Numbered from the stretch's first letter, positions 7,471 through 22,517 are shown. The stretch: 64,000 bases of DNA from an uncultured virus (IMG/VR IMGVR_UViG_3300042463_000956) (IMGVR_UViG_3300042463_000956:1-64000), one strand, 5' to 3'. The notes: generated by a model from the letters alone, not told the origin. Numbers and translations: made by a program.

Positions 7471-9291
7471 ATGAATCAAACAATAGTAGAAACCGTATTT
7501 GAAAATAACATAACACCAGAATTAACCGTAGCACTTCCAGTTTACAATAGTAAAAGTATTGCTTGGATAGCTATAGAAAGTTTATGTGAACAAATCAATA
7601 TTGATTTTAATTGGGAATTAATTGTTTATGAAGAAAAACACGCACAATCTGTTTTTCCAGAACTAATTGATTTGTATATTGAAAAACTAAAATCCGTTAA
7701 TTGTTCAAGGATTATATACATAACAAATAATGAAAAAGTTTCATTAGTTGAAAAATGGATTGAAATTGGAAAAAACGTAAGTGAATCATCAAAATGTTTT
7801 TTACTTCAGGCTGCCGATTGTTATTCACCAAAAACAAGACTTAAAATAAGTTATGAAAAAATAGTAAATGAAGACTATGATTGGTATGACCAAACAAAAG
7901 GTTATTTCTATTCATTTATAAGTGATAGAGTTATTTTATACGACTATAAAGGTTTTACAAATCTTAATATGTCACTAAAAACGGAATACATCAAAACATT
8001 ACCGTTTTCACCATTAAAAAAGGGTATTGATGGGTACATATATAATCACTCAATAATTTCTTGTAAACAAGCTTCCAGAAATTTCAGAAGATATTTTGAT
8101 GATGAATTATATAATGATAGTGTTGATACACACGGTCATAATAATATAAGTCATGCCAGAGAATCATACTTTGATACAAAACCAAACATCTTTTCAAAAA
8201 CAAATTTAAGTGTTAATGACTTAGATTGGAATATTAATATAAAAAATTCAATAGATTCGACATCCATATACGAACTTACAATAATAATATCAACATATCT
8301 AAACACACAATATCTAGAAGAGTGTTTTGGTTCTATTATTAATTCAATTGGTGAAAAGAAAGTACAAGTCTTAGTTGGTATTGATTCTTGTTTAGAATCC
8401 AAAGAACATATTGAATCACATAGTTATCCAAGTTATTTTGAGTTTTTCTTTTTTGAAAAAAACAACGGGCCTTATATTGTGTTTAATACCTTATCTAAAT
8501 TAGCACTTTCAAAAAACCTTTTATTTTTTGGTTCAGATGATATTATGAATTTAAATATGGTTGAGGATTCGATTAATGGTCTTATGACCCACGACTGTGT
8601 AAAACCATATTATACAAATTTTATCGATGGAAAACCTTTTGATTCACAAACAAAAAAACACGTTGGTGAAGGTGTGTTTGCAATAAAAAAAGACATATTT
8701 GACTATATGAACGGGTTTGAACCCTGGATGTGTGCGGCAGATTCTGATTTTATGGCAAGATTATATGGTTTAAAACAATATAGATTTAAATTCACAAATA
8801 AAATTAATTTTTATAGAAGAATACATAAAAATGGTTTAACAAGTAGACCAGATACTGGTATGGGGTCAAAATTAAGGGCTCACTATGGAACTTTAGCAAG
8901 ACAAAGAAATTCTATTGGACCAATACAGAATATGGTGGTTGAACCATATGTTATAGTTCACCAACAAACACTAACAACACCAAGAAAAGAAATTACAAGT
9001 CCAAATATACCAAGAGCTGAAAAAAACATATCACCTTTAGCTTTACTACAAAATAAAAATTCCGAACCACAACCTATCAGGAACTACGTAAAACAAGAAG
9101 TTAAACAAACACCAAAATCACAAATAAAAGAAAGACCACCGATTAGTCAAGTAAAACAAGACTCCGAAACAGAAAAACCAATAGACAAAAATTCATTGGC
9201 AAATAAAGCAAAAGGTGTTTCAGTAAATAAAAAACCACAAACCCCAAAAGGTAAAGATTTTAATATTGGTAAAGATTCTTTAAGGATTTGA
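7471..9291 (+). CDS. Tandem GT2-like glycosyltransferase with a low-complexity C-terminus
   Basis: Two GT-A starts (LTVALPVYN; LTIIISTY), DxD-like FFGSDD, GFEPW..ADSDF. The ATG at 7471 is a likelier start than 7444. Confidence 0.75.
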   Translation: MNQTIVETVFENNITPELTVALPVYNSKSIAWIAIESLCEQINIDFNWELIVYEEKHAQSVFPELIDLYIEKLKSVNCSRIIYITNNEKVSLVEKWIEIGKNVSESSKCFLLQAADCYSPKTRLKISYEKIVNEDYDWYDQTKGYFYSFISDRVILYDYKGFTNLNMSLKTEYIKTLPFSPLKKGIDGYIYNHSIISCKQASRNFRRYFDDELYNDSVDTHGHNNISHARESYFDTKPNIFSKTNLSVNDLDWNINIKNSIDSTSIYELTIIISTYLNTQYLEECFGSIINSIGEKKVQVLVGIDSCLESKEHIESHSYPSYFEFFFFEKNNGPYIVFNTLSKLALSKNLLFFGSDDIMNLNMVEDSINGLMTHDCVKPYYTNFIDGKPFDSQTKKHVGEGVFAIKKDIFDYMNGFEPWMCAADSDFMARLYGLKQYRFKFTNKINFYRRIHKNGLTSRPDTGMGSKLRAHYGTLARQRNSIGPIQNMVVEPYVIVHQQTLTTPRKEITSPNIPRAEKNISPLALLQNKNSEPQPIRNYVKQEVKQTPKSQIKERPPISQVKQDSETEKPIDKNSLANKAKGVSVNKKPQTPKGKDFNIGKDSLRI

Positions 9292-9298
9292 TTTATTA

Positions 9299-9508
9299 AT
9301 GTATTATCAATATATTTTATTAAAAAATCATATGTACGTAATAATTAAACACATCAAAACAGAAAGTAAAAAAAGAGTTCCAGTAATCTTATTAAATACT
9401 CAAGGAGAAATTTGGGAATTTGATTCTCAAAAAATTGCCGAAGAGATGAGGGACATATTTGAATTAAACTCAGATTCAGGTCACAAATACGAAGTTAAAA
9501 AGATTTGA
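9299..9508 (+). CDS. Small hypothetical protein
   Basis: ORF with phage-like codon usage; start may be the internal ATG (MYVIIKH). Confidence 0.6.
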   Translation: MYYQYILLKNHMYVIIKHIKTESKKRVPVILLNTQGEIWEFDSQKIAEEMRDIFELNSDSGHKYEVKKI

Positions 9509-9514
9509 TAATCT

Positions 9515-9588
9515 GGTCCCGTAGCTCAGCTGGATAGAGCAACTGCCTTCTAAGCAGTAGGTCTTTGGTTCGAATCCAAACGGGATCA
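9515..9588 (+). tRNA. tRNA-Arg(TCT)
   Basis: Cloverleaf with acceptor GGTCCCG/CGGGATC, anticodon loop CT-TCT-AA, T loop TTCGAAT. Confidence 0.95.
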
Positions 9589-9683
9589 CTAAAAAAATAT
9601 TATGGAAGACATATTTGAACAAATACATAATGAATTTATAAATTCCGAAGATTATTTTTCATATCTTCAAGATATTTATTCTT

Positions 9684-10121
9684 ATGAAGAAAAAGATAAG
9701 ACTAACGGAATCTGAATTAATAAGACTTATTAAAAGGATTATTGAAGAAGAAAAGTACTCCGAAGAAGATATCAAGTACACCCACCCAATGACAGGTGAA
9801 GCCTGTAAAATCAAAGTTGCCAGAAATAAACTTACAAGTATGGAATTTAACCAATATGGGTCAATTCTTGTTTGTGTTGATGAAGAATATGGTGATGATA
9901 GAATTGAAGCTGAACTTCCAGTAAATGGAAGTACATCAGAAGAAGTTAGTGATTTTATATGTGAAAACTTAGAAAGGACATTTGAACTTTTAGATGATAT
10001 GTTAACTTACGAAGAAGAAGAACCAATATCAGAAGAAGTTTATAGTCAAAGGTGGGATATAATAGACCAACCAATTGTTTGTACAGACAAACCAAAAAAG
10101 AAAAAAAGTTGGGAATATTAA
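9684..10121 (+). CDS. Hypothetical protein with MKKKIRLTESELIRLIKRIIEE leader
   Basis: ORF preceded by GATATTTAT; conserved N-terminal motif. Confidence 0.75.
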   Translation: MKKKIRLTESELIRLIKRIIEEEKYSEEDIKYTHPMTGEACKIKVARNKLTSMEFNQYGSILVCVDEEYGDDRIEAELPVNGSTSEEVSDFICENLERTFELLDDMLTYEEEEPISEEVYSQRWDIIDQPIVCTDKPKKKKSWEY

Positions 10122-10152
10122 TAAAAACACTTGTTTATTAGAAAAAAATACC

Positions 10153-10160
10153 TATCTTTG
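10153..10160 (+). promoter_or_regulatory. Bacteroidota-type -7 promoter element TAnnTTTG. Others at 10907, 13661, 14093, 14846, 15758, 18430, 20070, 20293, 24025, 33417 and minus strand 51175-51182
   Basis: Recurrent TATCTTTG-type octamer just upstream of genes or tRNAs, usually with TTG/TTTG about 20 nt upstream. Confidence 0.75.
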
Positions 10161-10208
10161 TAACAGAAATTAAAACTTTTAGAAATAACGATATACTTAT
10201 AATAAAAA

Positions 10209-10316
10209 ATGAAAACAAATCTTAGACATATGGTCATTAGCAAGCAACCGAGCAATCAGTGGTCGTTCTGCTATAATACGCTTAAACCGTCTAGGGCATT
10301 TTCATTTATGAGTTAA
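10209..10316 (+). CDS. Leader peptide 1 (35 aa, MKTNLRHMVISKQPSNQWSFCYNTLKPSRAFSFMS) of a putative attenuator
   Basis: ATG after an A-rich RBS-like stretch and TATACTTATA; unusually many C/G-ending codons; stop codon lies inside a hairpin that competes with the downstream terminator. Confidence 0.75.
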   Translation: MKTNLRHMVISKQPSNQWSFCYNTLKPSRAFSFMS

Positions 10317-10346
10317 TAACGATTAACCAACATAATAAAGGAATAT

Positions 10347-10377
10347 AAGACCCAAGGCAACAAACCTTGGGTTTTTT
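10347..10377 (+). terminator. Intrinsic terminator of attenuator 1
   Basis: AAGACCCAAGG-caacaaa-CCTTGGGTTTT plus T tail, just upstream of tRNA-Thr. Confidence 0.85.
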
Positions 10378-10388
10378 GTTTTATACCT

Positions 10389-10460
10389 GCTCTGTAAGCA
10401 TTGATGGCGATGCGCTTGACTTGTAATCAAGAAAAATCAGTTCGAATCTGGTACGGAGCT
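10389..10460 (+). tRNA. tRNA-Thr(TGT)
   Basis: Acceptor GCTCTGT/ACGGAGC, loop CT-TGT-AA. Confidence 0.9.
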
Positions 10461-10471
10461 CAAAAGAAAAA

Positions 10472-10488
10472 GTTCTTTGACATATTGG
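10472..10488 (+). promoter_or_regulatory. boxA-like antitermination element GTTCTTTGA. Also at 13518, 14121, 20329 and minus strand 22911-22923
   Basis: The same 9-mer precedes tRNA runs, the long ncRNA and the tmRNA; resembles rrn boxA. Confidence 0.65.
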
Positions 10489-10496
10489 CCTTATAA

Positions 10497-10567
10497 TGTT
10501 CCCTCGTCTAATGGCAGGACACGCGGTTTTGGTCCGTGGAATCGAGGTTCGAGTCCTTGGGGAACAA
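10497..10567 (+). tRNA. tRNA-Gln(TTG)
   Basis: Acceptor TGTTCCC/GGGAACA, loop TT-TTG-GT. Confidence 0.9.
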
Positions 10568-10576
10568 CAATAAATT

Positions 10577-10665
10577 GGAAGTCTAATTTAGCCGGCGCTA
10601 AACCTAGTCTTGAAAACTAGTGGTACTGAAACACGTATGGGGATCGACACCTCAGGCTTCCTCCA
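10577..10665 (+). tRNA. tRNA-Ser(TGA)
   Basis: Loop CT-TGA-AA, long variable arm, encoded CCA. Confidence 0.85.
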
Positions 10666-10673
10666 AAAAATAA

Positions 10674-10744
10674 CGAGTGTGTGGTGTAATGGTTGCACAG
10701 GATGTTTGGGACATTCGGGAGACGTTCGATTCGTACACATTCGA
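10674..10744 (+). tRNA. tRNA-Pro(TGG), weak T stem
   Basis: GGATG-TT-TGG-GA-CATTC; acceptor CGAGTGT/ACATTCG. Confidence 0.75.
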
Positions 10745-10803
10745 CTAACAAATAAACAAATAAAAACAAGTGTTATGGAAAGTGACAAGTATGACAAACA
10801 AAA

Positions 10804-10876
10804 CCCCTCGTAGCTTAATCGGGAAAGCACCATACTTTTAATATGGGGAGAGTCGGATCGTAACCGGCCGGGGGGA
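10804..10876 (+). tRNA. tRNA-Lys(TTT)
   Basis: CCATA-CT-TTT-AA-TATGG; acceptor CCCCTCG/CGGGGGG. Confidence 0.85.
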
Positions 10877-10923
10877 CAAAAAATTTGGTAGATTAAAAAA
10901 AAGTATTATCTTTGTAAAAATAA

Positions 10924-11004
10924 GGAAGTGTTGAGCATTTGGCTGGCTCGCTTGACTGTAAATCAAGTCCGAAAGGCGTGTAGGTTCGACCCCTACCACT
11001 TCCA
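10924..11004 (+). tRNA. tRNA-Tyr(GTA)
   Basis: CTTGA-CT-GTA-AA-TCAAG with a variable arm. Confidence 0.9.
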
Positions 11005-11012
11005 CAACAAAA

Positions 11013-11087
11013 GGACAAGTAGCTCAGAGGCAGAGCAACGAGCTGTTAACTCGAAGGTCATAGGTTCGACCCCTATCTAGTCCGCCA
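11013..11087 (+). tRNA. tRNA-Asn(GTT)
   Basis: Loop CT-GTT-AA; GCCA 3' end. Confidence 0.9.
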
Positions 11088-11088
11088 A

Positions 11089-11189
11089 AGATACAATGTT
11101 GGGCTCCCCGTAGTGGTAACGTCTTAAGTAAGTAGACCACAAGAATCTAGTAAGAAGTGACAGATGGGTTCGTCACGACTAAAGTATCT
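11089..11189 (+). ncRNA. Unknown structured RNA in the tRNA array
   Basis: Closing stem AGATAC/GTATCT; internal stems GTCT/AGAC, TAGT/ACTA, GTGAC/GTCAC; GC-richer than the genome. Confidence 0.45.
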
Positions 11190-11193
11190 AATT

Positions 11194-11266
11194 GTTCACG
11201 TAGCTCAATTGGTAGAGCGCCGATCTGATACGTCGGAGGTAATGGGATCGTAACCCGTCGTGAACA
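11194..11266 (+). tRNA. tRNA-Ile(GAT)
   Basis: CCGAT-CT-GAT-AC-GTCGG; acceptor GTTCACG/CGTGAAC. Confidence 0.9.
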
Positions 11267-11270
11267 CTAC

Positions 11271-11354
11271 GGAAGATAAACCTTGATGGAGATAGGGTCC
11301 ACCTGCTAAGCGAGATGTACCTTCGGGTATTTGGCTCGATTCCAATATCTTCTT
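11271..11354 (+). tRNA. tRNA-Ser(GCT), divergent
   Basis: Acceptor GGAAGAT/ATCTTCT, loop CT-GCT-AA, variable arm TACC-TTCG-GGTA; anticodon stem has mismatches. Confidence 0.6.
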
Positions 11355-11360
11355 CAACTT

Positions 11361-11430
11361 GCCGATAGAAAAGGTTTTCGGTCCGGGCTCATATCCTGGA
11401 TGTCATTGGGTTCGATACCCTTTATCGGTA
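11361..11430 (+). tRNA. tRNA-Met/Ile2(CAT) with a reduced D arm
   Basis: CCGGG-CT-CAT-AT-CCTGG; acceptor GCCGATA/TATCGGT. Confidence 0.6.
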
Positions 11431-11437
11431 CTTATAT

Positions 11438-11511
11438 GGTGTATGTAGCTCAGTTGGTAGAGTGCTGGATTGTGATTCCAGAGGTCGTGGGATCGTGACC
11501 CATCATACACA
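11438..11511 (+). tRNA. tRNA-His(GTG)
   Basis: CTGGA-TT-GTG-AT-TCCAG; encoded G-1. Confidence 0.9.
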
Positions 11512-11517
11512 CAATAT

Positions 11518-11589
11518 ACCTTCGTAGCTTAATGGAAAAGCCTCAGAATACGAATCTGATGATTGGGAGTTCGACCCTCTCCGAAGGTA
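11518..11589 (+). tRNA. tRNA-Arg(ACG)
   Basis: TCAGA-AT-ACG-AA-TCTGA; acceptor ACCTTCG/CGAAGGT. Confidence 0.85.
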
Positions 11590-11590
11590 C

Positions 11591-11755
11591 AAAAGATGAT
11601 AAAAGGCGTAGAACAACGGACACGGAGAGGTGTTCGCAAGGGTGCAAACTAAGGATAGGTATTCAATCTTAATTGTATTGATGTAATAACCCGACTCTCT
11701 AATGGTGTGTGAAGTATAATTACGGGATTCCTGATAAAGTTGTTCATCATCTTTT
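11591..11755 (+). ncRNA. Unknown ~165-nt structured RNA
   Basis: Terminal stem AAAAGATGAT/ATCATCTTTT, inner GAACAAC/GTTGTTC, hairpin GGACAC/GTGTTC; no convincing ORF. Confidence 0.5.
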
Positions 11756-11759
11756 ATTT

Positions 11760-11831
11760 GCCCCTTTCGTATAATGGAAGTACAACACTCTTCTAAGGTG
11801 TCAGGTCGGAGTTCGAGTCTCTGAGGGGGTA
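11760..11831 (+). tRNA. tRNA-Arg(TCT), second copy with a different body
   Basis: ACACT-CT-TCT-AA-GGTGT; acceptor GCCCCTT/AGGGGGT. Confidence 0.8.
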
Positions 11832-11869
11832 CGGATCCGATGTCGGTCCCGAGCTAGGTCGGGCAATTT

Positions 11870-11940
11870 ACGTGGTACAGACAGGGCGTCGGGCAGGTCT
11901 CCAAAACCTCGCCGGGTAGGTTCGATCCCTACACCACGTG
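11870..11940 (+). tRNA. tRNA-Trp(CCA), atypical D arm
   Basis: AGGT-CT-CCA-AA-ACCT; acceptor ACGTGGT/ACCACGT; G73. Confidence 0.75.
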
Positions 11941-11949
11941 CTAAAATAA

Positions 11950-12022
11950 GGACAGGTAGCTCAGTTGGTAGAGCTCAGGATTGAAGATCCTGGAGTCGGG
12001 GGTTCGACACCCTCCCTGTCCA
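11950..12022 (+). tRNA. tRNA-Phe(GAA)
   Basis: CAGGA-TT-GAA-GA-TCCTG. Confidence 0.92.
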
Positions 12023-12044
12023 CAAACAATTAAAATTAACTAAA

Positions 12045-12500
12045 ATGAACAGAGTTTTTAGAACGGTTAATGGTGTTGCAATACCAGATGTGGTTAATCA
12101 CACTTTGGGTGTTCTAAAAGAATGTCCCTGGGTGGAAGTCCACATTGGGACTGACTCACAAAACCACAGAAGATCAACCGTGTATGTTACGGTGATAGCG
12201 TATAGGTATGGAAATAGAGGTGTTCATTATATTCTTCACAAACAAAAAGTGAAAAAAATAAAAGATAAATGGACACGTCTTTGGAATGAGGCCGATTATT
12301 CAATTGAGGTTGCCGAATGGTTAACCCAGAAAGTAAAAGTAAAAGTTGAAATTGACTTGGACTTTAATAGTGATGAAAAACATTTCAGTTCAAAACTGGT
12401 TCAACCAGCTGTTGGGTGGGCGACATCCTTGGGGTATAAAACAAATATAAAACCCCATAATCAAATTGCAACAAAAGCGGCAGATTACCACTGCCGTTAA
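12045..12500 (+). CDS. RNase H-like YkuK/DUF458 family protein
   Basis: Motifs HIGTDSQ, RLWNEA..SIEVA, IDLD, IKP...IAT..AD. Confidence 0.75.
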   Translation: MNRVFRTVNGVAIPDVVNHTLGVLKECPWVEVHIGTDSQNHRRSTVYVTVIAYRYGNRGVHYILHKQKVKKIKDKWTRLWNEADYSIEVAEWLTQKVKVKVEIDLDFNSDEKHFSSKLVQPAVGWATSLGYKTNIKPHNQIATKAADYHCR

Positions 12501-12507
12501 TATATTA

Positions 12508-12578
12508 GCTCAGGTGGCCGAGGGGTTAGGCACCGGTCTGCAAAACCGAGTACGGGGGTTCAAATCCCTCCTTGAGCT
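12508..12578 (+). tRNA. tRNA-Cys(GCA)
   Basis: Loop CT-GCA-AA; U73. Confidence 0.9.
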
Positions 12579-12587
12579 CAACAAAAT

Positions 12588-12667
12588 GCCCCTGTGATGG
12601 AATGCAGACATGCTGGTTTTAGACACCAGTGCCGAAGGGTGTGAGAGTTCAAGTCTCTCCGGGGGTA
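12588..12667 (+). tRNA. tRNA-Leu(TAG)
   Basis: CTGGT-TT-TAG-AC-ACCAG with a variable arm. Confidence 0.9.
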
Positions 12668-12706
12668 CAAAACTTATTATCAATATATTTATATTAAAAT
12701 GTTGAT

Positions 12707-13045
12707 ATGAAAAAAATTATAAGACTAACAGAATCAGATTTAGCTCGTATTGTTAAACGAGTAATCCAGGAAGGAAATATTGAAAAATCATCAAAGGAAA
12801 AAGACCTTGATGTTAAGATGGAAAATTTCCGAGATAAAATAAAAGATTTTTTAAAATCTAAAGATTGTAAAGTAAAACAAGTTGGAACCGATTTTGAGGT
12901 TCATTGTGATGGAGAACACGTAGGTCAAGTTATGTTTAGAAGAAATGCTATTACAGTAAAAAAAGAAGGTAGTAGGTTTGGAAAAGATTTTAAATTTAAC
13001 GAAATGGGTGATATTAAAGCTGAATTATCAAAAATGTTAAAATGA
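12707..13045 (+). CDS. Hypothetical protein with MKKIIRLTESDLARIVKRVIQE leader
   Basis: ORF after ATATTTATA; leader DNA shares 44 identical nt with the next gene. Confidence 0.8.
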   Translation: MKKIIRLTESDLARIVKRVIQEGNIEKSSKEKDLDVKMENFRDKIKDFLKSKDCKVKQVGTDFEVHCDGEHVGQVMFRRNAITVKKEGSRFGKDFKFNEMGDIKAELSKMLK

Positions 13046-13326
13046 AAAAAGTAATCAGACTAACAGAATCAGATTTAGCTCGTATTGTTAAACGAGTAAT
13101 TCGGGAAAACGAAGAAAACAAATTTGACTTCTATATGGAAGAACTAGGTGAATTTGCAAATAAACTTGATTGGGAAGGTCTTGATATTGAAAGTGAGGAA
13201 ATGGAATATTTTGTTGATGACATATATCAGATAGTTTATGACGCAAAACAAGATGATACTTTATCTAAAGACGAAATTTCTCACATTGAAGGATTTGCTA
13301 TGGGTATTGTTAGTAGATTAGATTAA
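13042..13326 (+). CDS. Acidic hypothetical protein with MKKVIRLTESDLARIVKRVIRE leader
   Basis: ATGA overlap with the previous gene; shared leader. Confidence 0.8.
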   Translation: MKKVIRLTESDLARIVKRVIRENEENKFDFYMEELGEFANKLDWEGLDIESEEMEYFVDDIYQIVYDAKQDDTLSKDEISHIEGFAMGIVSRLD

Positions 13327-13393
13327 AAAATTAAATAAAACTTGACACTTTTAAAATTATTAGTATATTTATAAAAAAATTAAAAAACCGCAA

Positions 13394-13462
13394 ATGAAAA
13401 ATTTACACATATCATTGATAGGAGGCGATTTAGCTGAGGATTCTTTCAAGGAGAGGGTGTAA
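13394..13462 (+). CDS. Leader peptide 2 (22 aa, MKNLHISLIGGDLAEDSFKERV) of a putative attenuator
   Basis: Follows TATATTTATA; its 3' end GAGAGGG (13451-13457) is complementary to the terminator arm CCCTCTC (13491-13497). Confidence 0.75.
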   Translation: MKNLHISLIGGDLAEDSFKERV

Positions 13463-13486
13463 TATTTTATACATATAAAAATTTTG

Positions 13487-13517
13487 AAGCCCCTCTCTAA
13501 AAAAGAGGGGTTTTTTT
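13487..13517 (+). terminator. Intrinsic terminator of attenuator 2
   Basis: AAGCCCCTCT-ctaaaaa-AGAGGGGTTT with a T7 tail, followed by boxA and tRNA-Leu(TAA). Confidence 0.85.
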
Positions 13518-13542
13518 GTTCTTTGAAATATTGGTGAATAAT

Positions 13543-13625
13543 GGTCCGATGTTGGAATTGGTATACAAGACAGACTTAAAATCTGTTACCCATTGGGTGT
13601 GAGGGTTCAAGTCCCTCTCGGACTA
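13543..13625 (+). tRNA. tRNA-Leu(TAA)
   Basis: ACAGA-CT-TAA-AA-TCTGT with a variable arm. Confidence 0.92.
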
Positions 13626-13672
13626 CAAAAAATAAATTTGGTAGATTAAAAAATTATTTATACTTTTGTTTT

Positions 13673-13978
13673 ATGATAACATTTAAGGATATAGAGTTTA
13701 GACAACATAATGCTGGTGAAGGATCACAAGGGTTGATTTTTTTTCCTGGTGGATACGGACTTTCTGTTGTTAGATTTAAACATCCTTATAGTACCAGATA
13801 TTCGTCTTACACAGATGATAAAACCTGGGAGGTTGCAATTTTAAAAGGAACAAAAAATCATTGGGATATCTGTTATGATACAGAACTAACAAATGATGTT
13901 TTGACTTTCCAAACAGAAGAAGATATAAATAAAATAATTAAACACGTTCAAAGACTATATAACGATGAAAACAATTGA
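13673..13978 (+). CDS. Phage hypothetical protein (F..GYG.SV..WEVAIL pattern)
   Basis: 101-aa ORF behind a TAnnTTTG promoter. Confidence 0.7.
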   Translation: MITFKDIEFRQHNAGEGSQGLIFFPGGYGLSVVRFKHPYSTRYSSYTDDKTWEVAILKGTKNHWDICYDTELTNDVLTFQTEEDINKIIKHVQRLYNDENN

Positions 13979-14081
13979 GATTACATATCAGGAGATTAAG
14001 ATGGCAACAAGACCAAATGTGTATCGTAATAAAAAAAAATACACAAGAAAAGAAAAGTTTAAAAAAGATTTGGTAGATTGA
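13965..14081 (+). CDS. Small basic protein, ArfA-like motif (38 aa, MKTIEITYQEIKMATRPNVYRNKKKYTRKEKFKKDLVD)
   Basis: Not in the ORF track; overlaps the previous stop; KKKYTRKEK resembles the ArfA K.K.SY.RK.KH region. Confidence 0.45.
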   Translation: MKTIEITYQEIKMATRPNVYRNKKKYTRKEKFKKDLVD

Positions 14082-14142
14082 AATAAAATACATATCTTTG
14101 TAAAACAAATAAGGAAAAGGGTTCTTTGAAATATTAAAAATA

Positions 14143-14224
14143 AAAATCACGGGTGGCTCCCTTAATAGTTAAGGCTGACCTTAAGCATCTGACGTATGTC
14201 TATACAGGGGGTGAAAGTGATTTT
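14143..14224 (+). ncRNA. Unknown ~80-nt structured RNA
   Basis: Closing stem AAAATCAC/GTGATTTT and hairpin CCTTAA/TTAAGG; lies right after a promoter and boxA. Confidence 0.45.
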
Positions 14225-14231
14225 AAAATAT

Positions 14232-14322
14232 TGTGGTTGTAAGAAACGGGAAACTCGTAAAGTGTATCAACCTGTTAAATCAAGATAGTGAAACGAGAGT
14301 TTGATTTAACTACTGAACTACA
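14232..14322 (+). ncRNA. Unknown ~90-nt structured RNA
   Basis: Closing stem TGTGGTT/AACTACA; hairpins ACGGG/CTCGT and GTTAAATCAA/TTGATTTAAC. Confidence 0.45.
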
Positions 14323-14328
14323 AAAAAC

Positions 14329-14438
14329 AGTCAAGTGGCGGAATTGGTAGACGCTGGGAGATAATACTCAAAACTCCTTGGGGTAAGGTGATTTTCACAT
14401 TTATCTCGTGATAGGTTCGAATCCTTCTTTGACTACCA
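14329..14438 (+). tRNA. Atypical tRNA-Leu-like RNA (possible CAA anticodon) with an expanded anticodon/variable region
   Basis: Leu-type D arm GCGGAATTGGTAGACGC, acceptor AGTCAAG/TTTGACT, ACCA end; CTCAAAA loop displaced by an insertion. Confidence 0.5.
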
Positions 14439-14441
14439 TAT

Positions 14442-14513
14442 TGCGGGGTAGAGCAGTGGTAGCTCGGCGGGCTCATAACCCGTAGGTCGCAGGTTCGAAT
14501 CCTGCCCCCGCAA
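14442..14513 (+). tRNA. Initiator tRNA-fMet(CAT)
   Basis: GGG/CCC anticodon stem, loop CT-CAT-AA, TGCGGGG 5' end. Confidence 0.9.
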
Positions 14514-14520
14514 CTAAAAT

Positions 14521-14601
14521 GCTGACGTACCAGTGGATGCTTATATCATCTATGCCTGTAGTGGTAAGTTTAAAACGTTGGTTCGAATCCAACCGTCAGT
14601 A
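14521..14601 (+). tRNA. D-armless tRNA-like RNA with TAT (Ile, AUA-reading) anticodon
   Basis: Acceptor GCTGACG/CGTCAGT, GGATG-CT-TAT-AT-CATCT, perfect T arm GTTGG-TTCGAAT-CCAAC; only 7 nt where the D arm should be. Confidence 0.55.
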
Positions 14602-14607
14602 CAATAA

Positions 14608-14680
14608 GCGGAAGTAGCTCAATTGGTAGAGCTCCTGCCTTCCAAGCAGGTGGTTGAGGGTTCGAGTCCCTTCTTCCGCT
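14608..14680 (+). tRNA. tRNA-Gly(TCC)
   Basis: CCTGC-CT-TCC-AA-GCAGG. Confidence 0.95.
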
Positions 14681-14870
14681 CAAAAAATAAACGAGTAAAA
14701 AGAATAAATGATGGAAAATATGGTTTTATCAGGAACTTCAGAATCATCAAAAGTTAAATTTGTTAAGACTAATTTTAAATCTGATTTTGCAAAAACATTA
14801 AAGAAAAAACTTAAAAAAAGATTTGGTAGATTAAAATAAACTAACTATCTTTGTAAAACCAAATTAAAAC

Positions 14871-14942
14871 GGTCTGTTCGACAAGGGGTTAAGTCGTCGC
14901 CCTTTCACGGCGAAGTCACGGGTTCGAATCCCGTACAGACTA
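14871..14942 (+). tRNA. tRNA-Glu(TTC)
   Basis: TCGCC-CT-TTC-AC-GGCGA. Confidence 0.95.
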
Positions 14943-14951
14943 CAAAATTTT

Positions 14952-15027
14952 GGCTCTATGGTTGAATGGCTACAATACCGCCCTGTCACGGCGTGTGGTA
15001 CGGGTTCGAATCCCGTTAGAGCCGCCA
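14952..15027 (+). tRNA. tRNA-Asp(GTC)
   Basis: CGCC-CT-GTC-AC-GGCG; GCCA end. Confidence 0.9.
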
Positions 15028-15033
15028 AAATAT

Positions 15034-15113
15034 AGTTAGGTAATGTGTAATGTGAAAATGGTATCACATCCTTAATGGTTACATTGTTGCAGGTTCGAGT
15101 CCTGTCCTGACTA
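15034..15113 (+). ncRNA. tRNA-like RNA: acceptor stem and T arm, no canonical D or anticodon arms
   Basis: AGTTAGG/CCTGACT and GCAGG-TTCGAGT-CCTGT; middle TAATGT/ACATTG stem encloses ATGTGA/TCACAT. Confidence 0.55.
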
Positions 15114-15117
15114 CAAT

Positions 15118-15280
15118 CGGTTGCTTGATTCCTGGTAGTAGAGTAACAACCGTTGGAGAATTCGGGATATCTCGTGAATGGTGGTGTAAGATATAAAAGG
15201 GAAACTTACAATGGTGGAGTACCAAAAACAAAAGAAACGAGACATGTGGGTGATCATATGTTGGTGCAAATCTCCACCTT
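15118..15280 (+). ncRNA. Unknown structured RNA(s)
   Basis: Stems CGGTTG/CAACCG, TGGAGA/TCTCCA, TCTCGT/ACGAGA, GTAAG/CTTAC, ACATGTG/CATATGT. Confidence 0.35.
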
Positions 15281-15297
15281 TTTTAAAATTAAAAAAA

Positions 15298-15387
15298 GAC
15301 GATGAACTTCAGTTCCCACACAGCGGTGAGATGGGCTAAGCTATATACAGGTTCTCGGTGCTGGAAGTAGAAGGCTGAAGAGTCGTT
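15298..15387 (+). ncRNA. Unknown ~90-nt rod-like RNA
   Basis: Nested stems ACGA/TCGT, CTTCAGTT/GGCTGAAG, CAGC/GCTG, GAGA/TCTC. Confidence 0.4.
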
Positions 15388-15390
15388 GTT

Positions 15391-15506
15391 TGTCAGGAGT
15401 GTAATGAGGCATGGTGCCGAGTCCCCAAGACACCACGGTCCAAGAGCAATTTGGACGCGAGAAGTTATAAGGTCGCTCATTGTGGGTTCGAATCCCACCC
15501 TGACAT
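15391..15506 (+). ncRNA. tRNA-like RNA: acceptor stem and T arm with a multibranch insert
   Basis: TGTCAGG/CCTGACA and GTGGG-TTCGAAT-CCCAC; AATGAG/CTCATT encloses three hairpins. Confidence 0.55.
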
Positions 15507-15521
15507 CTAAAATTATATATT

Positions 15522-15734
15522 ATGAAAGATGCGTTATTAACAGTTTTGGCAACCGTTCTATCGGTTGTTTTTGTAGGATTTGGTTCAATTTTATTTGTGA
15601 ATTTTCTAGAAGGTGAATTTGCAATTATACCATTTTTAATTGGTCTTGTTGGTTATTTCATCGCTCTTAGACCTGCTATTAATGAGTGGGAAAGTACTTT
15701 TAAAAAATTATTTAAAGTTAAAGATGAAGAATAG
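15522..15734 (+). CDS. Small two-TM membrane protein
   Basis: Two hydrophobic stretches in 70 aa. Confidence 0.65.
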   Translation: MKDALLTVLATVLSVVFVGFGSILFVNFLEGEFAIIPFLIGLVGYFIALRPAINEWESTFKKLFKVKDEE

Positions 15735-15769
15735 TTTGTAAATTAAAAAAAACTTTATATCTTTGTTGT

Positions 15770-16186
15770 ATGAAAACAATTATAACAACCTTATTTATCC
15801 TATTTTATTTTGTTTATTTTTCTCAAATGAGTGATTTGGAAAAAGCCGTATTTGAAGAATTTAAAATCTATAAAAAAAATTACAATGGTAATACAGTAAA
15901 ACTCGATACAACACTAAGTTTTGGTTGTAAAGAACATAGTATTACTATGTATAAAGTTGTTAATCTTTTCCATGCTAAAATGGACGGAGTTAGTTTTAAA
16001 TCTGAAATATGTCAAGAAAGTTTTGCAACAAGTAAAAGTACAAAAGAAAATTCAAAATTTATTCTTGATGGATTTTTAGTGTCATCTGAACACACAAAGT
16101 TACTTAGAGAAAAATCAGAATATATGGGTGTTGGTATTTTTGTTGACCAATACGATAATTATTGGGTTACAATACGTTTTCGTTAG
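15770..16186 (+). CDS. Secreted CAP/SCP-like domain protein
   Basis: Signal peptide; HS..M, S..H...L, YMGVGI, YWVT pattern. Confidence 0.55.
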   Translation: MKTIITTLFILFYFVYFSQMSDLEKAVFEEFKIYKKNYNGNTVKLDTTLSFGCKEHSITMYKVVNLFHAKMDGVSFKSEICQESFATSKSTKENSKFILDGFLVSSEHTKLLREKSEYMGVGIFVDQYDNYWVTIRFR

Positions 16187-18126
16187 AAATTACCAACACC
16201 AGAACTAATAACAGCGGTTGCTTTATCGTTACTACAAGGATTATATCTTATAACAAATTGAGCCTCACATTCTGGAGCTCCCCCACATCCACCACACCTT
16301 GGGAAAGTACCGTATGGCATACCTAAATCAACCACAGTTCCGTTTGGTTTTGTAAATTTAATAAATGGAGTTTCCATGTGTGTTGTCATACAAGCATTAT
16401 TCGGATCAGTCATATCAAGATAGTTTTTATATCTATCAGAATAGTATTTATGACCCTTACCCTTTAACCAGATTTCAACTTCACCAACTTTACTTTTTGC
16501 CATAACTTTTTCAGCAAAAGCTGCTGTTATTGTAAATGTATTTGTTCTGGTACCACCAACATTTCTATCACCACCAACAGTTTTTAAGTTTAAATTTTGT
16601 CCTGTTTGTTTTTTTCCTTTTTCATCTAAGATAATACCAGAACTACATAAAACACCATTTCCAATGTCAGCCGTACCAATTAACACTTCACCGTTCAAAT
16701 ATAAATCAAATGTTGCCTTATCACACGAGTGATTGTTTCCTTGATAATAATCAATTGATATTTTTGAATTTGTTAAACAAGGTTTACTTGTTTGGGTTCC
16801 ATTAGGCATATTTTTTAACACTCTAATTGTGAGTTTAAAATACACCTGTTGACCAGGTACTTTAGATACTCCGTTAGTACCTGTCCAAGTTCTTTCTGGA
16901 CTATCATCAGGAACACCACCTGTATTAACTGTGTAAGCAACAACTTTATCTTTAGAAAAACCAGCCACTTTAATTCCAACACCATTTGCATCTTTTTTTG
17001 GTAGAGCAGCTTTTAGATTACCTAAAAACTCTGTAGCTCTTTGTAATGCTAAAGTGTTATTACTAGCATAATTTTTACCATATAGTGCTTGATCTAATTT
17101 ATCACTATTAAAAATTGGGTTTTTATAATCATCACCTTTAAAAGTAATATCCCAACCAATTTTTTGTCCGTTCATAATATTGCTAGCACCACCACGAACT
17201 TCAGCTAAAGTCATGTGTAAGTTACCGTTTTTTCCTTCGGCAACTAATGTTGTGTTTTTTAAAATCTGAGCTCTAATTGCTTCGTTAACCTTTTTTACTA
17301 ATGAGGCACTATCAGTACCCATAGTCGCAAGTGAAGCAAAACCTTCAACAGTGTAACTTTTTAAATTATCGTTATATGTTATATTAACAATTGCATCACT
17401 AAAAATTTGATTCATACTACCACCGCCAGTTGTTCCTGGTTTTGTTGTTGCTGTTGTTCCTGGTTTTGTTGTTGCTGTTGTTCCTGGTTTTGCTGTTGCT
17501 GTTGTTCCTGGTTTTGCTGTTGTTCCTGGCTTTGCTGTTGTTTTTTGTTGTGAATCAGACTCAACCTTTTTTATACTTTCAATTCGTTCTGTAACATCTT
17601 CACCTTTAGATTTAAGTGTTATTAACTCACCAACGCTAGTAGCAATTGATAATGTTACTTTATCAAACGCGGCTCTTAATTTTGCATTATCGGCATCTAC
17701 TTTTGCATATTTTTTTGTATAACTTTCTCTAAAAGGTACAGTATTAAGACCAGTATTACTTGGGGGGTTTTCCAATTTATTATTTACTGGGTTTTTAAAT
17801 TTTTCAACAGAACCTAATGGGTAACTAAAAAAAATTTCACTATAGATTTCGTTGAAGTATGTTATTTGGTTATTTGATTTTAAACCTATAACTTTTGGGG
17901 TTCCAGTATAATTTTCTGTTAAATTTTTTTGTTCATCAATACCATATAATTTGATTTCATTAAAACCATATTTGTTTAATGTTGCACTATATGCACTAGT
18001 AAGTTCACTAGCAATCTGGTCATAGTCAGTTTTATCTTGTTCTAATAGTATTTTTTGTTCTGAAATTACAACACCTCTTTGATATCCAAGAAGGTATTTC
18101 ATATATTTTAATTCTTCGTTAATCAT
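16183..18126 (-). CDS. Large hypothetical (probable virion) protein with TKPGTTAT repeats
   Basis: 647 aa; INEELKYMKYLLGY leader; tandem DNA repeat at ~17429-17540. Confidence 0.65.
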   Translation of the reverse strand: MINEELKYMKYLLGYQRGVVISEQKILLEQDKTDYDQIASELTSAYSATLNKYGFNEIKLYGIDEQKNLTENYTGTPKVIGLKSNNQITYFNEIYSEIFFSYPLGSVEKFKNPVNNKLENPPSNTGLNTVPFRESYTKKYAKVDADNAKLRAAFDKVTLSIATSVGELITLKSKGEDVTERIESIKKVESDSQQKTTAKPGTTAKPGTTATAKPGTTATTKPGTTATTKPGTTGGGSMNQIFSDAIVNITYNDNLKSYTVEGFASLATMGTDSASLVKKVNEAIRAQILKNTTLVAEGKNGNLHMTLAEVRGGASNIMNGQKIGWDITFKGDDYKNPIFNSDKLDQALYGKNYASNNTLALQRATEFLGNLKAALPKKDANGVGIKVAGFSKDKVVAYTVNTGGVPDDSPERTWTGTNGVSKVPGQQVYFKLTIRVLKNMPNGTQTSKPCLTNSKISIDYYQGNNHSCDKATFDLYLNGEVLIGTADIGNGVLCSSGIILDEKGKKQTGQNLNLKTVGGDRNVGGTRTNTFTITAAFAEKVMAKSKVGEVEIWLKGKGHKYYSDRYKNYLDMTDPNNACMTTHMETPFIKFTKPNGTVVDLGMPYGTFPRCGGCGGAPECEAQFVIRYNPCSNDKATAVISSGVGNF

Positions 18127-18194: not shown

Positions 18195-18362
18195 ATGAAG
18201 TTAACAAAAGAACAAGTTTTAGGAATTGTTAGACACGCTTTAACATTTGTTGGTGGTATTGTTGTTATGAAAGGATTAGCCGAAGCAGGTGTTGTTGCAG
18301 AAATTACTGGTGGTGTTATGACACTTGTTGGTGCTATCTGGTCAATCGTTGCTAAAAAATAA
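18195..18362 (+). CDS. Putative holin-like small membrane protein (55 aa, MKLTKEQVLGIVRHALTFVGGIVV...)
   Basis: Not in the ORF track; two TM segments and a basic C-terminus; late motif upstream, terminator downstream. Confidence 0.6.
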   Translation: MKLTKEQVLGIVRHALTFVGGIVVMKGLAEAGVVAEITGGVMTLVGAIWSIVAKK

Positions 18363-18381
18363 ATTTATTATTATTTTTTGT

Positions 18382-18409
18382 AAACCCCATCTTTTAGGTG
18401 GGGTTTTTT
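18382..18409 (+). terminator. Intrinsic terminator
   Basis: AAACCCCATC/GGTGGGGTTT plus T tail. Confidence 0.8.
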
Positions 18410-21994: not shown

Positions 21995-22048
21995 TTAGGA
22001 TATCTCCTAAAAAAGAAAACCCACTTCAAAAGAGTGGGTTTTTTAATT
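21990..22048 (+). repeat. 59-bp direct repeat copy 1 (contains a terminator hairpin)
   Basis: Identical to 22459-22517. Confidence 0.9.
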
Positions 22049-22133: not shown

Positions 22134-22460
22134 ATGAAAAGAATAATTAGATTAACTGAGTCGGATCTTACAAGAATTATAAGACGTGTAATTATGGAGG
22201 GTAATTTAAAAGTTGGTGAAATAGTTAAAGTGACAGATGGTTTTGGTACTTTGGAAATTGAAATTGATGAATCCACTCCTAATGGATACCAAGGAATAAT
22301 TGTTGACCATTCTGGTGATTTTGGTGTAAGTAGTAAACAGGTAAAAATGTCAAATATCGCAATTGGAAATTTGGCAACAATTAAAATGATTGATGATAGT
22401 AATGTTAGTGTTACTTTATCTGATACATATAAAAAATCAGTAAAAGCTAAAATCAAATAG
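22134..22460 (+). CDS. Hypothetical protein with MKRIIRLTESDLTRIIRRVIME leader
   Basis: ORF after ATATTTATA; flanked by the 59-bp repeats. Confidence 0.75.
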   Translation: MKRIIRLTESDLTRIIRRVIMEGNLKVGEIVKVTDGFGTLEIEIDESTPNGYQGIIVDHSGDFGVSSKQVKMSNIAIGNLATIKMIDDSNVSVTLSDTYKKSVKAKIK

Positions 22461-22517
22461 TAATTAGGATATCTCCTAAAAAAGAAAACCCACTTCAAAA
22501 GAGTGGGTTTTTTAATT
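22459..22517 (+). repeat. 59-bp direct repeat copy 2, abutting the tmRNA 3' end
   Basis: Identical to 21990-22048; AAAACCCACT/AGTGGGTTTT bidirectional terminator. Confidence 0.9.

Follow-up and report, generated by a model that had tools for sequence, protein, structure and literature searches.

Introduction

Leader-peptide attenuators control the amino-acid operons trp, his, leu and phe, and the multivalent thr and ilvGMEDA leaders sense two or three amino acids at once. T-box riboswitches sense uncharged transfer RNA (tRNA) directly and control aminoacyl-tRNA synthetase genes. The tRNA genes carried by phages are usually viewed as passive codon-usage aids or as spares against tRNA-cleaving defences, and to our knowledge the control of their expression is largely unknown. 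Here we describe two modules in an uncultured virus (IMG/VR record IMGVR_UViG_3300042463_000956), each composed of a promoter-like site, a short open reading frame (ORF) and an intrinsic terminator placed directly before tRNA genes. We read both modules as probable ribosome-dependent transcription attenuators, with a probability of roughly 0.6 and with the strongest case in the second, hereafter leader 2.

The DNA analyzed (the window) comprises the initial 64 kb of a record of 78.5 kb, with a rated completeness of 26%. Related records reach 257–304 kb, and the virus is therefore taken to be a giant phage. For its host, we can only infer a member of the Bacteroidota, because Shine-Dalgarno sequences are lacking and TAnnTTTG-type boxes are present, which we take to be the promoter consensus of that phylum.

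Results

Two paralogous modules precede tRNA genes

Module 1 (10131–10381) lies directly before tRNA-Thr(UGU) and module 2 (13342–13521) directly before tRNA-Leu(UAA), with gaps of 10 and 25 nt, respectively, between the T run of the terminator and the tRNA (Table 1). A first-pass annotation of this DNA, made from the sequence alone, had proposed the order of promoter-like motif, short ORF, intrinsic terminator and tRNAs, and this order was found at both modules. Both terminator stems are GC-rich, and from guessed start sites the terminated transcripts would measure about 215 nt for leader 1 and 145 nt for leader 2. The two modules are paralogs, as they can be aligned with each other over the promoter-like region and the beginning of the ORF; the second promoter-like element of module 1 is homologous to the leader 2 promoter (alignment with 13335–13430).

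Relatives were collected from IMG/VR through an upstream 145-amino-acid ORF (6 loci) and through an RNaseH-like ORF within the array (62 loci). BLAST searches (E ≤ 1e-10, the window's own loci counted) yielded 46 loci for leader 1 and 42 for leader 2, which correspond to 31 and 27 distinct sequences. Alignments and covariation were restricted to full-length copies, i.e., 28 distinct sequences for leader 1 and 26 for leader 2, window included, and these are the sets to which the counts below refer.

The leader ORFs keep their frame

An ATG-started ORF is retained in every full-length copy, with 34–36 codons in leader 1 and 22–24 in leader 2. Insertions and deletions (indels) are of 1–7 nt in the flanks and of 3 nt within the ORFs, with one exception in leader 1, where a 4-nt difference at the stop codon moves the end of the ORF to the next stop. 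Substitutions are spread across codon positions, with 24, 25 and 24 variable columns at positions 1, 2 and 3 of leader 1 (entropy 0.505, 0.547 and 0.558) and 10, 13 and 14 in leader 2, hence no third-position excess of variation in either ORF; several codons are invariant at all three positions. Since the frame is kept through indels while third positions show no such excess, it is the frame that is conserved and not the amino-acid sequence, a pattern of retention that would be expected for a regulatory leader and not for a protein gene. The 5′ untranslated part is conserved more strongly than the ORF, and searches of both leader peptides against Pfam and PHROGs gave no match for either.

A separate observation concerns RNA, for which the material comprised assembled contigs of five runs, with small shares only: a 246-nt metatranscriptome contig (X5) spans the second half of leader 1 and its terminator, matching 10245–10385, and runs about 100 nt onward into sequence unlike the window. 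This contig fits either read-through RNA from a relative or DNA carry-over.

Leader 2 carries a covarying antiterminator

In what follows, regions 1 and 2 lie near the start and end of each leader ORF, and regions 3 and 4 are the 5′ and 3′ arms of its terminator. When the 3′ arm of the leader 2 terminator is withheld, its 5′ arm folds onto the last sense codons of the ORF. Of the 208 cells that this 2:3 helix occupies in the 26-sequence alignment, 95.7% are paired; both sides have changed in four of the eight pairs, and none of 500 shuffles was as good. Slid controls were 46–70% paired. The terminator itself is 98.7% paired, with one of nine pairs changed on both sides, and the leader 2 antiterminator thus covaries as well as its terminator. 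Several independent events preserve the helix, including one (L051) in which the terminator 5′ arm has been altered to match region 2 and a terminator pair has been lost, while three sequences (L048, L050 and L058) carry a single mismatch in it.

Folding energies point in the same direction. The 2:3 helix reaches −11.6 to −18.6 kcal/mol in all 26 sequences (each p ≤ 0.015 against shuffles), about as stable as the terminator (3:4) at −15.9 to −18.4 kcal/mol. A 1:2 helix joins codons 2–9 to the stop region at −7.4 to −13.9 kcal/mol, and for 1:2 as well as 2:3, none of 300 permutations of the partners did as well as the native pairing. Region 1 spans the start codon and the first codons, and region 2 ends 2 nt ahead of the stop codon. 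Judged from sequence, leader 2 has the full architecture of a trp-type attenuator.

Leader 1 presents a more variable picture. Terminator 1 shows compensatory changes in 4 of 11 pairs, and its 5′ arm finds its best partner at alignment columns 131–151 in 17 of the 28 sequences. The 1:2 helix, between the start region and codons 27–33, has an energy of −15.8 kcal/mol (z −4.5); helix 1 is 96.8% paired, and the 1:2 helices together with the stop-codon hairpin are 86.2% paired. The 2:3 helix ranges from −20 to −24 kcal/mol (z about −7) in L021, L024, L040 and L058, through −13 to −15.6 kcal/mol in six further sequences, to −10.3 to −11.7 kcal/mol in the window's own clade. None of 300 partner permutations equaled the native pairing of this helix, and its core is 90.3% paired with two covarying pairs. 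A switch at leader 1 of this window is plausible but weak.

A model of ribosome-dependent read-through

The conservation of the ORFs, the helices with their covariation and the adjacency to tRNA genes are direct observations, on which the following model builds. Transcription would start at the conserved promoter-like site and pass through the short ORF, whose translation would set whether polymerase stops at the terminator or reads through into the tRNAs. On a leader without a ribosome, regions 1 and 2 would pair, the terminator would form and transcription would stop. A ribosome that runs fast to the stop codon would cover region 2, and the terminator would form again. A ribosome held in the first two thirds of the ORF, by contrast, would mask region 1 and leave region 2 free to pair with the terminator 5′ arm, letting polymerase read through and yielding tRNA-Thr to tRNA-Lys behind leader 1 and tRNA-Leu(UAA) behind leader 2. 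That the ORFs are translated, that the switch runs in this direction and that slow decoding is its signal are steps that we infer.

The codon repertoire of leader 1 matches its array

The first-pass annotation had further proposed that the codons of each leader mirror the tRNAs behind it. Its codon lists for both leaders agree with the sequence, and its statement that leader 1 covers every amino acid of array 1 holds in all 28 distinct leader/array combinations, the two amino-acid sets being identical (16 each) in L033 and L035. Chance expectation was estimated from 35-codon ORFs of leader 1's own base composition, for a statistic that was picked after seeing the data. Under this null, coverage of all 15 array-1 amino acids has P = 0.016, absence of Gly, Asp and Glu P = 0.022, and both together P = 0.0007, and with phage codon usage as the null the corresponding values are 0.0024, 0.0002 and 0 of 100,000. 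Among stop-free 35-codon segments from the six frames of the window, 1 of 5758 both covers and lacks these sets. The first 22 codons of leader 1 already include 16 amino-acid types (P = 0.039).

A frame test, in which each distinct combination of site and amino acid was counted once and the ORF's own frame was compared with the other two frames of the same sequences, gave a similar result. Ala, Asp, Glu and Gly account for 3 of 114 states in frame vs. 37 of 227 out of frame (p = 1.2e-4), whereas Val, for which most relatives have a tRNA in array 1, is not depleted (7 of 114 vs. 22 of 227). As Ala, Asp, Glu and Gly are a single transition away from the many ANN codons of leader 1, their scarcity would not stem from mutational distance. 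The proposed lack of Gly, Asp and Glu holds in the window itself; among the relatives, Asp or Gly occurs in five variants. Overall, these comparisons support a match between leader 1 and array 1 that exceeds chance and is specific to the reading frame.

Whether selection has made the amino-acid repertoire of leader 1 equal to the tRNA set of the following array is a tentative proposal, to which we give less than even odds. Slightly bolder is the view that each leader acts as a codon checklist, i.e., an OR-gate attenuator, for the tRNAs that follow, which we regard as possible, on evidence from leader 1 only, and would not favor. Leader 1 would then hold at least one codon for each of the 15–16 array-1 amino acids and none for Ala, Asp, Glu and Gly, which are served by tRNAs encoded elsewhere. 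Should a host tRNA for any of the array-1 amino acids run short, which could follow from host shut-off, anticodon nucleases or codon-usage mismatch, the ribosome would stall and the replacement tRNAs would be switched on. Leader 2 would do likewise for the second tRNA block.

Leader 1 is also uneven in its use of G, which occurs 2, 7 and 11 times at codon positions 1, 2 and 3. Seven codons other than those for Met and Trp end in G (P = 1.5e-4 vs. phage synonymous usage), and six of these are the NNG partners of the array-1 U34 tRNAs for Thr, Gln, Ser, Pro, Lys and Arg(UCU).

Counter-evidence and alternative explanations

A number of observations weigh against attenuation, or against the codon checklist in particular. 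The attenuators of the first-pass annotation are supported by the conserved, frame-keeping ORFs, the covarying terminators and the leader 2 antiterminator, but the leader 1 antiterminator is marginal in the window: its 2:3 helix reaches about −11.1 to −11.5 kcal/mol (z −1.7, p 0.07), and with the terminator 3′ arm blocked no 2:3 helix forms. Regarding codons, five leader 1 variants have Asp or Gly codons without the matching tRNA. For leader 2, the proposed mirroring of array 2 is not sustained: Gly, Asp, Glu and Ala make up 14 of 53 states in frame vs. 28 of 112 out of frame, which is compositional and not frame-specific, and the stretches in which these codons lie are rich in purines and pair with the pyrimidine-rich arm of the terminator. 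The converse comparison, on amino acids lacking an array-2 tRNA, gave 14 of 53 vs. 43 of 112 (p 0.16). Nor do leader repertoires follow array content among relatives, as codon mirroring would lead one to expect: arrays vary from 7 to 16 amino-acid types (ARAGORN may miss some), while leaders stay constant at 15–18. The partition of Leu and Ile isoacceptors between the leaders, also put forward in the first-pass annotation, comes down to few ancestral sites, with p 0.27 for Ile. For Leu, a state-level Fisher p of 5e-4 was judged inflated: two CTN sites of leader 1 are ancestral, and for most newly arisen Leu codons the path of single-step mutations dictates which codon results.

The codons are also not arranged as in classical leaders, neither leader having a run of any one codon; leader 2 holds three UUR Leu codons in 22 and leader 1 two Thr codons in 35. 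Codons of the immediately downstream tRNAs appear only mildly above a rough hand estimate from phage codon usage. Both leaders use codons that are rare in phage genes (P < 5e-5 and 8e-4), a usage equally compatible with a sensor and with unadapted sequence.

Both modules could instead be unremarkable small genes of the phage, or short transcripts, each equipped with a promoter and a terminator and situated before tRNAs by chance; the tRNAs would be expressed by constitutive leak-through and from internal promoters, with nothing sensed. The arrangement of ORF, terminator and promoter is shared by ordinary small genes of the window, such as one of 55 amino acids at 18195–18409. Linkage to tRNAs is loose for leader 2, which lies ≤40 nt from tRNA-Leu(UAA) in only 8 of the 26 sequences and ≤110 nt in 14, the remaining 12 having a promoter-like site or an ORF next and not a tRNA, and in 11 of the 28 leader 1 sequences the 2:3 helix is no better than shuffles. 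Moreover, a motif combining an upstream element with a TAnnTTTG-type box (pB) has four copies in the 64 kb (10884, 13637, 14069 and 14822, all on the + strand), every one in the tRNA region, in line with the earlier caveat that internal promoters may bypass the attenuators. These sites likely split the arrays into several transcription units, so that only Thr-Gln-Ser-Pro-Lys and Leu(UAA) would strictly need read-through. Against chance placement stand the position of tRNA-Thr(UGU), 10–14 nt past the T run of terminator 1 in all 28 sequences and too close for a promoter, and the leader 2 antiterminator, which covaries on both strands independently of the terminator. Ordinary genes would also be hard to reconcile with ORFs that show no third-position excess and peptides that match no Pfam or PHROG family, and on balance we consider this explanation unlikely.

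Two further alternatives accept that the RNA is functional and remove the ribosome from the decision. The terminators could be regulated, with a phage or host protein or the timing of infection selecting the hairpin and the ORFs retained for some other reason. The alternative helices are indeed what is directly seen, and codons conserved at all three positions could reflect an RNA binding site. Yet the placement of leader 2 regions 1 and 2 at the start and stop codons would be purposeful only with ribosomes, indels keep the ORF frame, and the depletion of Ala, Asp, Glu and Gly codons is confined to a single frame, points that together leave this option improbable. Less probable still is that the terminated transcripts are functional small RNAs with incidental ORFs. 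The whole leader 1 transcript does fold better than shuffles (z −3.9), and the stronger conservation of the 5′ untranslated part would suit such a role, but all 28 and all 26 sequences retain one open frame, and in leader 1 the two remaining frames are interrupted, with 9 and 14 distinct stop states. RNAalifold, for its part, found no consensus structure in leader 1 other than the terminator, and Rfam matches are limited to tRNAs. Ribosome-dependent attenuation remains the reading that we prefer for both modules.

tRNA arrays and neighboring features

Default ARAGORN settings detected 19 tRNAs, and relaxed settings added Ser(UGA) at 10577, Met(CAU) at 11360, Trp(CCA) at 11870, Ile(UAU) at 14513 and Arg(CCU) at 15034, with weak Rfam support for two of the relaxed-threshold tRNAs. 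Of the tRNA set listed in the first-pass annotation, the Ser, Met, Trp and Ile genes at the first four of these positions were recovered at the relaxed threshold only, but its Leu-CAA-like RNA (14329–14438) was not confirmed, with an Rfam score of 23.9 bits vs. a cut-off of 29 and conflicting ARAGORN calls. Met(CAU) at 14442 and Arg(CCU) at 15034 had been absent from that set.

Table 1. Positions of the leader modules, their pairing regions and the associated tRNA genes in the window
Feature	Coordinates	Strand	Remarks
Promoter-like site P1, module 1	10131..10160	+	TAnnTTTG-type box at 10153-10160; conserved in relatives; resembles pB at 14069 and 14822
Second promoter-like element, module 1	10170..10203	+	9/12 match; many invariant columns
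Leader 1 region 1 (start codon and codons 2-6)	10207..10227	+	Pairs with 10289-10307
Leader 1 ORF, 35 codons plus stop	10209..10316	+	Open in all 28 distinct sequences
Leader 1 region 2 (codons 27-34), candidate antiterminator strand	10286..10310	+	Pairs with 10335-10359
Small hairpin across leader 1 stop codon	10312..10327	+	About 90% paired; 2 pairs changed on both sides
Terminator 1	10340..10381	+	11-bp stem, 10347-10357 with 10365-10375, then T run
tRNA-Thr(UGU), Gln(UUG), Ser(UGA), Pro(UGG), Lys(UUU)	10389..10877	+	No promoter-like site back to terminator 1
Internal promoter-like site pB before tRNA-Tyr	10884..10920	+	Motif search
Rest of array 1: Tyr, Asn, Ile, Met, His, Arg, Arg, Trp, Phe, RNaseH-like ORF, Cys, Leu(UAG)	10924..12668	+	
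Promoter-like site, module 2	13342..13369	+	11/12 sigma-70-like match, best of the region; conserved in relatives
Leader 2 region 1	13394..13424	+	Pairs with 13440-13471
Leader 2 ORF, 22 codons plus stop	13394..13462	+	Open in all 26 distinct sequences
Leader 2 region 2, antiterminator strand (last sense codons)	13450..13457	+	Pairs with 13491-13498
Terminator 2	13486..13521	+	11-bp stem, 13486-13496 with 13504-13514, then T run
tRNA-Leu(UAA)	13543..13626	+	Sole tRNA from terminator 2 to next promoter-like site
Internal pB before 101-amino-acid ORF	13637..13672	+	Further copies at 14069 and 14822
Array 2: Met(CAU), Ile(UAU), Gly(UCC), Glu(UUC), Asp(GUC), Arg(CCU)	14442..15114	+	

Several other features of the region were observed. 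The 151-amino-acid RNaseH-like protein encoded inside the tRNA array (12045–12500; PF04308, 87 bits) has 58–100% identity in 62 related contigs. Four ORFs (9684–10121, 12707–13045, 13042–13326 and 22136–22461) are nearly identical over their first ~20 residues and then diverge, and form a paralog family with a shared N-terminal module, three members of which flank the tRNA arrays. Inter-tRNA spacers that are richer in GC (11270–11355, 11595–11755, 14140–14438 and 15115–15510) contain tRNA-like T arms and no confident tRNA, given conflicting intron-containing ARAGORN calls and Rfam scores below threshold. The spacers may encode small RNAs that are degenerate, contain introns or are novel. Finally, an identical bidirectional terminator hairpin with its flanks occurs at 22019–22044 and 22488–22513, 469 nt apart, around one small gene.

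Distribution of the leader modules

Neither leader region had a BLAST match among 50,697 deposited phage records. The whole array region matched 1803 phage records, via tRNA sequences only, and none of these covered the leader modules. A third paralogous module was sought in the records of five large relatives and rejected: each has one leader 2, and further matches were confined to the promoter-like part. The best candidate for a further module (L077) proved to be an ordinary gene with no tRNA nearby.

Distant relatives (L062–L071, RNaseH-like protein 59–60% identical) have tRNA arrays but lack a leader ORF, and upstream of tRNA-Thr they carry a structured spacer about 145 nt in length. At L063:1150–1320, and at the same spot in L064, L066 and L067, this spacer has a minimum free energy of −36 to −39 kcal/mol and lacks an ORF beginning with ATG, and the site may thus be occupied by an element of another kind.

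Discussion

If the proposed model is true, the phage gauges decoding speed and makes tRNAs on demand. Leader-peptide attenuation, known for one or a few amino acids and for biosynthetic genes, would then span most of the genetic code and act on the decoding machinery itself. At ~150 nt the leader 2 switch is compact, and natural compensatory changes back both of its helices, which makes it directly testable in a reporter. The first-pass annotation knew of no earlier description of such attenuators, and our full-text literature searches likewise brought up no description of leader-peptide attenuation of tRNA genes; a term search of PMC10690425 gave 0 occurrences of "attenuat" or "leader peptide".

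Like the tRNA clusters of T4-like and other large phages, the locus described here is an array of tRNA genes with small ORFs interspersed, and it differs from them in its leader modules, found in none of the array-matched phage records. With T-box riboswitches it would share a terminator/antiterminator switch linked to tRNA status; however, a T-box requires no leader ORF, and a T-box identity was rejected after an Rfam scan of 8000–18000 (E ≤ 1) gave only tRNA-clan and weak chance matches. The closest resemblance is to the trp, his, leu and phe attenuators (see also PMC3082878 and PMC4046918), which likewise have a short 5′ leader ORF and an intrinsic terminator before the regulated genes. Leader 2 shares with the trp type its mutually exclusive 1:2, 2:3 and 3:4 predicted helices, region 1 falling within the ORF and region 2 at its end. 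Unlike in the amino-acid operons, the genes that would be regulated here are phage tRNA genes and not biosynthetic genes, the leaders lack a tandem run of one regulatory codon, and region 2 closely precedes the stop codon, within the ORF, where in those operons it follows the stop. As in the thr and ilvGMEDA leaders, a single leader would poll more than one kind of codon, but the leaders described here would spread the poll over up to 16 amino-acid types, mostly represented once or twice each, and no codon is clustered in them.

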